Assembly (NCBI RefSeq): GCF_003334305.1
Contig: NZ_QOWS01000025.1
Length of the DNA: 64,000 bases
Direction: 5' to 3' (one strand)
Source of the DNA: Escherichia coli
GTDB taxonomy: Bacteria > Pseudomonadota > Gammaproteobacteria > Enterobacterales > Enterobacteriaceae
The position numbers were made by a program. Of this stretch, positions 42,101 through 45,100 are shown piece after piece. Positions within the stretch are counted from its first letter, which is position 1. The number at the start of each line of letters is the position of its first letter.

Positions 42101-45100
42101 GTTTTCATAGGCTTTTACATTCACATAAGGCGAACACTCATCAAACCCTTTGATCGAACCAAAAATCAGACGTGGATTGATTTCTTGAATATGCTCCCAG
42201 GTGAAGCCCATGTGATCAATGGCCCCTGGATGAAAGTTCTCGACTAAGATATCAGCTTCGCGGATCAGCTTTTCCATTACCTCTTTGCCTTCCGCTGTTT
42301 TGGTATTTAACTCAATAGAACGTTTGTTACTGTTAAGCATGGTGAAGTAAAGCGCATCGATATCAGGAATATCTCGCAGCTGGTGACGCGTTACGTCACC
42401 AACGCCGGGACGTTCAATTTTAATAACGTCAGCGCCAAACCAGGCCAGCATTTGAGTACAAGATGGGCCAGATTGCACACCGGTGAAATCGAGAACTTTA
42501 ATTCCTTGAAGTGGAGTTGACATAGCAATACCTATTAGTTAATTAAATATGTGTTAATTTAGCGTTTATTTAAGGCGTAATATCTTCTATAAATAACCCG
42601 CAAAATATCGTCGTAGCTGCACTCGATATTTTTAAAATCCTGTATCAAGTGCTGAAAATCATTTCATCGCCACTTCCAATTCCTTTCTGCATGGTAAGTA
42701 GTGAGGACGAAAAGAAGAATATGATAAATATTGATTCGTGGTAATCAGAGAGAGTCGCGACATTTGTGATGTTATTCTTACAACTGTAAGAAGCGCCGGT
42801 GATTTACAAGTAAGGGTATGATTACGCTTTTTAAAGCGTACCATAAAACATAACATAATAAATGATTTGTGATGACACGGGATTATTGGGATTTACTTTG
42901 AGGAAGATAAAATGCGTGTTTATAGAACCGCGAGCGCCAAATAATTTTATGACCACAACCTGTCGTATTGTGGTCATAAAAAATTGTCGGCTGGAGGGAG
43001 TTAAATCCTTTACCTCAATATACTGCCTGTCAGCATTAGTTCACAAACAGTGCTTCGCTGTCGACGATGATTCCATCTTCCGCACCTTTAAGCGCCAGGT
43101 TTGCCTCGTAGTATTGCTTTTTATCAAGCAGTTTCTGCGCATCAGCAAGTGCATTACGAGTCTGTTTAAGCGGCATCAGATATTGGTTTTCCATTACGCC
43201 AACACCGGCCAGGCGAAGTTCTTCCATTGCGCCCTTTTTATCCCCTTTCGCCATTTTTTCATTGGCAATTTTTATCGCGGCTTCTTTTTCGGGAGTTGCT
43301 ACATAGCTCTCAGAAATTCCGACAGATGCATTAATGACAATATATTGGTCATCATTGAGATTGGTCTTTTTACCTGGCTTAGCGAACTTTGCCCATTCGG
43401 TACTGTCATCTGACAGCAAAGCGGAAGCTTCATTGGTCAGTTCTTTTGCCTTTTCTGGATCGCCATGAAACAGAGCCAGGCGCGCTACCTGCACGTCACG
43501 CATCGCATATAAACCTTGTTCAGAGATACGCTCTGCTGCTGCCGTTTTCTGGGTTTGCTGAACTTGCTGAGTTTGCTGTTGTGCCGCTACCGGTGCATTA
43601 TCAGCAGCCCATACAGTTGAAGATGCCAGAATTGCTGTGACCATCGTGGCCATAATTAAACGTTTCATACTTACCTCATTCTTTAACAGTTTTAGAAAAC
43701 GCCGCCATCATATTGGGTGAGCATGAAATGAGAAATCAGAGAGCAACGGTCATTTTGAAAGGGTTATCTTACAGTTGTAGTTATTATCGCAAGAAGTATT
43801 TTAGTCTTACAATTGTAGGAATATGCTTCCTGTCACAGAGAACTATTCTTATGTACCACAAAGAGATGTCATTTATTATATCGATGTAAATATTGATTAA
43901 TTATATGTAAATACAGCCATAACATCGTAGGTCCTCAGTGAACCATTTTCAGGATAACTTTCTATGAAAGTAAACTTAATACTTTTTAGCTTATTTTTAT
44001 TGGTCTCTATTATGGCATGCAATGTTTTTGCATTTTCCATTTCTGGTGGTGGAAGTGAGAGGAGCTATAAAGAGACGGAAAAAACATCAGCGATGACGAT
44101 AACTCACTCTACAAAACTTCAGCCATCACAGGCAATTTTGTTTAAGATGAGAGAAGATGCGCCACCATTAAACCTCACAGAAGAAACCACGCCCCCTTTT
44201 CCGACAAAGGCGAATTATCTTATTCATCCTGTGCGATAGCGTCTGTCACCTGGCAGGTGAACAATCATGTCTGATGCTGATGTGAACACCTGCCCAAATG
44301 AGCCATCCTGACCCACTACCGCCTGCCATACCCCACCATAAAGCGAATCATCAAGCCACAAGCCGGGGCAAGAAACATAAATATCCCCGTCACCAGTTCA
44401 TTACCGCCTGTTAACCACATGGTGAAGTAATAAATGAGTGCAGCGAGGATCACCATGCCGAAGAAAGAAGAGACCGCCGATACCACGTTCAGTACCTGAC
44501 CGATGTATCCGCTTACGCAGACAATACACAGGGCGAGAAACATCCATAAATAAATCATAGCTCAACCTCCTGCCGCGCTAAAAAACCTGTAACTTCAGTC
44601 ACTTTAATAGTAAGACAATCCTTAACCTCTGGCAATTTTTGCTAAGCATCAATGAAAACAGCATGTTAAATGCAACGCTATTGCGTGCGGAAAATTTTTT
44701 ACTTTGCACGATTAATAATCAGTAGCTGAAAGCAGTCAGCCAGTGATAAAGTAGAGCCACCGCATTCATGCTCCTCGTGGTTATGTCCTGACTAGTCTTT
44801 ACACTCTTTACAGGAACCATTGTCGTACATGATGGCCCAACCAATTGAGTGTACCGCTGTCGACATGGAATCTTCTGCGATACAACAATTCGTATCTACA
44901 GAAGGTAACTATGTTTCCACAATGCAAATTTTCCCGCGAGTTTCTACATCCTCGCTACTGGCTCACATGGTTTGGGCTTGGTGTACTCTGGCTTTGGGTA
45001 CAGCTTCCTTATCCTGTTCTCTGCTTTCTCGGCACGCGTATTGGCGCAATGGCGCGACCATTCCTGAAACGTCGTGAATCTATCGCCCGTAAAAACCTGG

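Follow-up and report, generated by a model that had tools for sequence, protein, structure and literature searches.

EvgA boxes upstream of frc and yfdX in Escherichia coli are consistent with two separately controlled transcription units

Which regulator controls the oxalate and formyl-CoA genes of Escherichia coli and the neighboring gene yfdX, and does it act at one promoter or at two? We addressed this question in a 64,000-nucleotide stretch of E. coli DNA (the window), for which a sequence-only reading had pointed to EvgA boxes upstream of frc and of yfdX. From these boxes, it had proposed that yfdX and frc-oxc-yfdVE each have an EvgA-dependent promoter, an arrangement that would tie the oxalate/formyl-CoA genes to the EvgAS acid-resistance regulon. 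EvgA regulation of yfdX and of frc-oxc is already known, from publications that go back some twenty years. Because this link is published, finding it again mainly shows that real operators can be recovered from raw sequence.

In the RefSeq annotation of a 100% identical strain, the genes run in the order dsdA, emrY-emrK (minus strand), evgA-evgS (plus), yfdE-yfdV-oxc-frc-yfdX (minus), ypdI (plus), yfdY (minus) and lpxP (plus), and K-12 MG1655 shares this order. The 1.9-kb piece around the boxes is present in 5,424 of 5,426 complete E. coli genomes and matches many E. coli chromosomes at 100% identity. The evgAS genes are intact within the window, about 9 kb from the frc and yfdX boxes. For frc-oxc-yfdV-yfdE, the annotated products are a formyl-CoA transferase, an oxalyl-CoA decarboxylase, a transporter and an acetyl-CoA:oxalate CoA-transferase. 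The genes that enter into the argument are as follows.

33024-33638, plus strand: evgA, the response regulator taken here to read the boxes (RefSeq annotation of the identical strain)
33643-37236, plus strand: evgS, the sensor kinase (RefSeq annotation of the identical strain)
37292-42523, minus strand: frc-oxc-yfdV-yfdE, the proposed second regulated unit (annotation of the window and K-12)
41273-42523, minus strand: frc (RefSeq annotation)
43036-43668, minus strand: yfdX, encoding a periplasmic YfdX-family protein, the proposed first regulated unit (RefSeq annotation)

Several smaller features of the region can be recorded at this point. The yfdX gene shows a 3-nt length polymorphism: it is 633 bp long in the window and 636 bp in K-12, O157:H7 and some others, and the extra codon lies in the N-terminal region (alignment columns 1315-1317). 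A nine-codon open reading frame, MLHCKGNNL, at 32998-33027 has a 4-nt overlap with the evgA start codon and is the evgL gene (b4781) annotated in K-12. We take as spurious both a 65-amino-acid reading frame that runs through the frc box (42659-42856, minus strand) and a 183-amino-acid frame antisense to yfdX; each is unannotated in every strain examined. We also rejected a 15-codon frame in the frc leader (ATG at 42692-42690) as a leader peptide, as it lacks a Shine-Dalgarno sequence, and the frc dyad as an RNA hairpin, as a 2-nt loop with 8-bp arms cannot fold. At E <= 1, the only Rfam matches to 42300-44400 were meaningless eukaryotic ones, and thus no known RNA element emerged in the frc leader.

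We searched for EvgA boxes with the 18-bp dyad pattern TTCYTACA-NN-TGTARGAA. This consensus, TTCYTACA-N2-TGTARGAA, reportedly goes back to Masuda & Church and to Itou et al. As a cross-check in K-12, the pattern hit, with no more than two mismatches, the upstream regions of safA, ydeP, yegR and emrK/evgA, all of which are established direct EvgA targets; elsewhere in 37 kb of K-12 sequence, the search found nothing comparable to these boxes. In the window, the sites are the following, none of them assigned to a strand.

42775-42792: frc box, TTCTTACAACTGTAAGAA (TTCTTACA-AC-TGTAAGAA), a perfect 18-bp dyad with 0 mismatches to TTCYTACANNTGTARGAA (direct reading and pattern search)
43804-43821: distal yfdX box, GTCTTACAATTGTAGGAA (GTCTTACA-AT-TGTAGGAA), 1 mismatch (direct reading and pattern search)
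43766-43783: proximal, weak yfdX box, ATCTTACAGTTGTAGTTA (ATCTTACA-GT-TGTAGTTA), 3 mismatches (pattern search)
32782-32799: emrK-evgA box in the divergent spacer, TTCTTACGCCTGTAGGAT, 2 mismatches (pattern search); the same site is present in K-12

The best match in the window is the frc box, which is identical in K-12 and whose end lies 251 nt upstream of the frc ATG. These values bear out the exact match, about 250 bp upstream of frc, that had been read from the sequence. The distal yfdX box, which ends 135 nt upstream of the yfdX ATG, is the 17-of-18 match described there. A weaker yfdX copy had been placed at 43765-43782; the copy exists, with three mismatches, but when it is set in register it lies one base to the right. 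Taking these results together with those that follow, we conclude with high confidence that the dyads serve as operators of EvgA, a response regulator of the NarL/FixJ family whose gene lies about 9 kb away.

Two further observations concern the surroundings and relatives of these boxes. The 7-mer GTAATCA (42743-42749) and its complement TGATTAC (42819-42825) lie on either side of the frc box at nearly equal distances of 25 and 26 nt; they extend the frc palindrome and raise the possibility of bidirectional action. In a divergent E. coli species representative (L002), whose EvgS is 90.5% identical to that of the window, the emrK-evgA box is a perfect copy of the consensus (TTCTTACACCTGTAGGAA, positions 19729-19746).

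The boxes are conserved selectively. In an alignment of the window with 12 E. coli genomes that span an identity range of 95.2-99.5% and with the divergent L002 (14 E. coli in total), 2 of 48 specified box positions vary, versus 173 of 753 (23%) other intergenic columns (Fisher p = 9e-4). Of the six central NN positions, four vary. All 16 specified positions of the frc box are invariant, and its sole variable column, 42783, falls in the central NN; the distal yfdX box varies only at 43812, which is also central, and, in one strain, at 43814. Variation confined to the central spacer is what a dyad read by a dimer should show, and is unlike that of neutral AT-rich DNA. These data support the view that the boxes are under purifying selection at their specified positions, from which the central spacer would be exempt. 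Between the two yfdX boxes, 7 nt (43793-43799) are almost wholly replaced in the most divergent strains; both boxes are intact there.

Published work bears directly on this locus. In PMC3720670, a secondary citation, EvgA is said to activate yfdXWUVE, and the Fig. 2 legend marks inverted repeats bound by EvgA, one set for yfdX and a separate one for yfdWUVE. In PMC5706723, the reporter PyfdX-yfp carries a promoter described as 'directly activated by phosphorylated EvgA', with binding again a secondary citation, and emrKY is under direct EvgA regulation as well (PMC8174306). In evgS-constitutive mutants, frc and oxc are among the most induced genes; the same study found no EvgA sites beyond the known targets, and considers the oxalate cycle in the role of a proton sink (PMC4283999). 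Mild acid induces yfdX, frc, yfdV and oxc 16-30 fold (log2 4-5; PMC10746267). With respect to the proposed tie between the oxalate/formyl-CoA genes and the EvgAS acid regulon, PMC5706723, PMC4283999 and PMC10746267 agree. The sequence-only reading had suggested an evgS-constitutive mutant as a test of its idea, and the strong induction of frc and oxc in such mutants leaves that idea unrefuted (PMC4283999).

We compared six K-12 EvgA promoters (frc, yfdX proximal, safA, ydeP, yegR and emrK) after anchoring them on their boxes. We found that all six have an invariant CA at +9/+10 after the box and share a block, TC[CT]T.ATT, at +25 to +32. The information content of this block was reached by 0 of 5000 random re-registrations, and the register persists if each obviously related pair is reduced to a single member. 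Of the two yfdX boxes, the near-perfect distal one lies outside the fixed register; the weak proximal one fits it, as the frc box does. Downstream of the boxes, we assigned the following features.

42743-42752, minus strand: CTCTCTGATT motif, 22 nt downstream of the frc box (six-promoter comparison; invariant in 13 E. coli)
43734-43743, minus strand: identical CTCTCTGATT motif, 22 nt downstream of the proximal yfdX box (six-promoter comparison)
42721-42726, minus strand: candidate -10 hexamer of frc, TATCAT (proposed from a hexamer match only)
43707-43712, minus strand: candidate -10 hexamer of yfdX, TATGAT, with TTCTCA 16 nt upstream (proposed from a hexamer match only)

The CTCTCTGATT motifs may be an element of the -35 region, or they may be secondary, low-affinity EvgA half-sites. 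The candidate -10 hexamers would put the box centers near -70 for frc and near -74.5 and -112.5 for yfdX. In the frc hexamer, the sole variation is at position 4 (TATCAT to TATTAT). A simple promoter scan of the minus strand between the frc box and frc found no site that scored at least 9/12. For the frc-yfdX spacer, PMC3946193 gives a gSELEX peak of RNA polymerase that is flagged as H-NS bound; within this peak, and upstream of the EvgA box, it predicts a constitutive sigma-70 promoter for frc. This predicted promoter corresponds to 42882-42911 (minus strand), and reads TTTATA-18-AATAAT in K-12, with TTTATC in the window. If it is active, then the frc box would lie about 90 nt inside its transcript.

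Between the two genes, we found a terminator-like structure.

42945-42981, minus strand: terminator-like hairpin with a 15-bp stem and then UUAUUUGG, 55 nt past the yfdX stop codon

The hairpin has a predicted RNA fold of -21 kcal/mol (z -5.4), with only 4 G-C pairs in its stem. In one strain, 42952 A>G is accompanied by 42974 T>C at its pairing partner in the stem, and two strains carry a change from G-U to A-U at 42959. These compensatory and G-U to A-U changes suggest that the hairpin is under structural selection and that it probably ends much of the transcription from yfdX, in which case a separate frc promoter would be needed. The U-tract (UUAUUUGG) is imperfect, so that some read-through from yfdX into frc is likely.

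Such read-through is one of the points in favor of a single yfdXWUVE operon, in which all EvgA control would come from the yfdX promoter and the frc box would be redundant or a non-functional relic. The term 'yfdXWUVE operon' also persists in several papers, and the fold induction of yfdX and that of frc are alike (PMC10746267). Against this, the frc box is the best match in the window, and 16 of its 16 specified positions are invariant among 14 strains where 23% of the spacer columns vary. Furthermore, the frc box has the downstream register of the other EvgA promoters, the terminator is conserved with a compensatory change, and PMC3720670 marks two EvgA sites, one for yfdX and one for yfdWUVE. 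We consider a single operon very unlikely. The separate sites of PMC3720670, the selective conservation of the boxes and the conserved hairpin all favor the separate EvgA-dependent promoters that had been proposed for yfdX and frc-oxc-yfdVE, and we regard two transcription units, yfdX and frc-oxc-yfdV-yfdE, as the supported arrangement, one that the conserved hairpin would fit.

We also considered whether the frc box is bidirectional and drives, in addition, a plus-strand transcript antisense to yfdX. The box is a perfect palindrome, flanked almost symmetrically by the GTAATCA/TGATTAC inverted repeat, and promoter-like hexamers are present on the plus strand at 42830-42859 and 42886-42913. Such promoter-like hits, however, are no more common than in shuffled sequence (8 found versus 5.6 expected), and the plus-strand side lacks the conserved CA at +9/+10. 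Nor did the annotation of K-12 and of the identical strain, or the Rfam scan, contain an antisense product or feature. From these results, we judge antisense transcription from the frc box to be highly improbable.

A different question is whether another NarL/FixJ-family regulator is the main reader of the dyads, either UvrY/SirA (TGTRAGA...TCTYACA) or RcsB (TAAGAAT-ATTCTTA). The half-site core, TCTTACA / TAAGAA, is common to these families, and the 18-bp inverted repeat of the NarL/FixJ-family regulator UvrY/SirA upstream of csrB/csrC has a half-site with TCTTACA. The half-sites described here (TTCTTACA-N2-TGTAAGAA), by contrast, have the opposite orientation and a different spacing: those of UvrY/SirA face the other way (TGTRAGA-N-TCTYACA) around a longer central spacer, and our sites do not fit them. 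Moreover, the same half-site arrangement recurs at safA, ydeP, yegR and emrK, all of them EvgA targets. In Klebsiella, yfdX is RcsB-dependent according to PMC6394985, but for E. coli the published genetics tie the induction to evgS and evgA (PMC5706723, PMC4283999), and yfdX reporters have already been reported to lose induction in an evgA mutant in which uvrY and rcsB are intact. Control mainly by UvrY/SirA or RcsB is thus extremely unlikely.

Finally, short palindromes are common in DNA with 65% A+T, the composition of the frc and yfdX spacers, but the reading of these boxes as chance matches is effectively refuted, and its probability negligible, given conservation that is selective to the box and the statistics of the search: the window's composition predicts 7e-5 exact matches per 64 kb and 3e-3 at one or fewer mismatches, the two spacers' own composition predicts 2.5e-6 and 1e-4, respectively, and the four matches observed in the window at three or fewer mismatches, versus 0.49 expected, were reached in 0 of 100 shuffles.

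As EvgA operators, the boxes at frc and yfdX closely resemble those of the other K-12 EvgA targets (ydeP, safA-ydeO, yegR and emrKY/evgAS). At these targets, the same 18-bp dyad occurs with 0-2 mismatches in intergenic DNA, 100-250 nt upstream of the start codon, and is followed by the same downstream register, CA at +9/+10 and TC[CT]T.ATT at +25 to +32. Nothing essential differs among the EvgA targets examined; frc has the only perfect match, and yfdX the only tandem two-box promoter.

Among well-studied regulators, the closest homologue of EvgA is BvgA of Bordetella. At promoters of the fha type, BvgA uses a far-upstream inverted repeat of TTTCCTA-like heptads, which is followed by lower-affinity sites every 21-22 bp or so, down to -35. 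The EvgA promoters show a comparable half-site-like conservation at about +20 and about +42 bp from the first half-site, although occupancy of these secondary sites by EvgA is suggested by sequence only. The two systems differ in regulator, organism and regulon, and the positions that we propose relative to the start site also differ from those at fha.

The two yfdX boxes lie 38 bp apart, center to center. As this spacing is not an integral number of helical turns, it is awkward for simple cooperativity on the same face of the DNA. In some E. coli, strain CUVET21-37 among them, a 38-bp tandem duplication is present upstream of yfdX (window 43766-43821; positions 1543-1636 of locus L082). The duplicated unit equals the center-to-center distance of the two boxes, and the duplication adds a hybrid third box, GTCTTACAATTGTAGTTA. 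Of 5,096 matching records, no fewer than 414 (about 8%) fit the duplicated allele at 99% identity or above; sampled records without the duplication score no more than 98.7% against it. Its probable origin is unequal exchange between the boxes.

These features could be parts of a composite EvgA architecture that is not known to have been described, although Itou et al. 2009 may contain part of it; we put the idea forward tentatively and consider it possible rather than probable. The primary dyad would be followed by degenerate half-sites in fixed register, about 20 and about 42 bp downstream, that reach -35 in a tiling of the BvgA type. The frc box would have its functional counterpart at yfdX in the weak proximal box, with the strong distal box as an affinity anchor. 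Prone to recombination, the 38-bp unit would have given rise to the allele with three boxes that about 8% of E. coli carry, and this allele could tune the output of yfdX. The position of the weak proximal yfdX box in promoter register, the fixed-register motifs and the 38-bp duplication may be new.

A genome search with Frc as the query returned, among the matches listed, one Escherichia, one Moellerella and one Providencia locus. The Frc homologues of Moellerella wisconsensis and Providencia stuartii, at 86-87% identity, are encoded in frc-oxc-yfdV-frc2 clusters. In these two genomes, we found no yfdX in the clusters and no evgAS in the 10-kb flanks; within 1 kb upstream of the clusters, there was no EvgA box at five or fewer mismatches in Moellerella, nor at four or fewer in Providencia. 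Given the absence of box, yfdX and evgAS there, EvgA control looks, on the basis of two genomes only, like an overlay of the Escherichia lineage on an older oxalate cluster. In both clusters (L003 and L004, 10001-15650), a second frc-like gene, 74-89% identical to Frc, replaces yfdE. The match to the second copy in Providencia is split into three pieces, and a frameshift may be present.

From the literature and the arrangement of the sites, we propose the following mechanism. According to the literature, EvgS phosphorylates EvgA under mild acid, and a dimer of EvgA~P on the 18-bp dyad activates a downstream sigma-70 promoter with a poor -35. The first unit, yfdX, would be controlled by a weak proximal and a strong distal box and would end at the hairpin terminator, and the second, frc-oxc-yfdV-yfdE, would have its own perfect box and a leader of about 190 nt. 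At yfdX, we infer that the proximal box contacts the promoter and that the strong distal box feeds it cooperatively. The motifs downstream of the boxes might act as a special -35 region or, in the manner of BvgA, as half-sites to which EvgA binds secondarily and with low affinity. EvgA may also relieve H-NS silencing of the AT-rich spacer as part of the mechanism.

The yfdX promoter is already a standard reporter of EvgS activity. The wiring described here puts the genes for oxalate decarboxylation, together with periplasmic YfdX, under the mild-acid signal of EvgS/EvgA, and is part of the preparation of E. coli for stomach acid.
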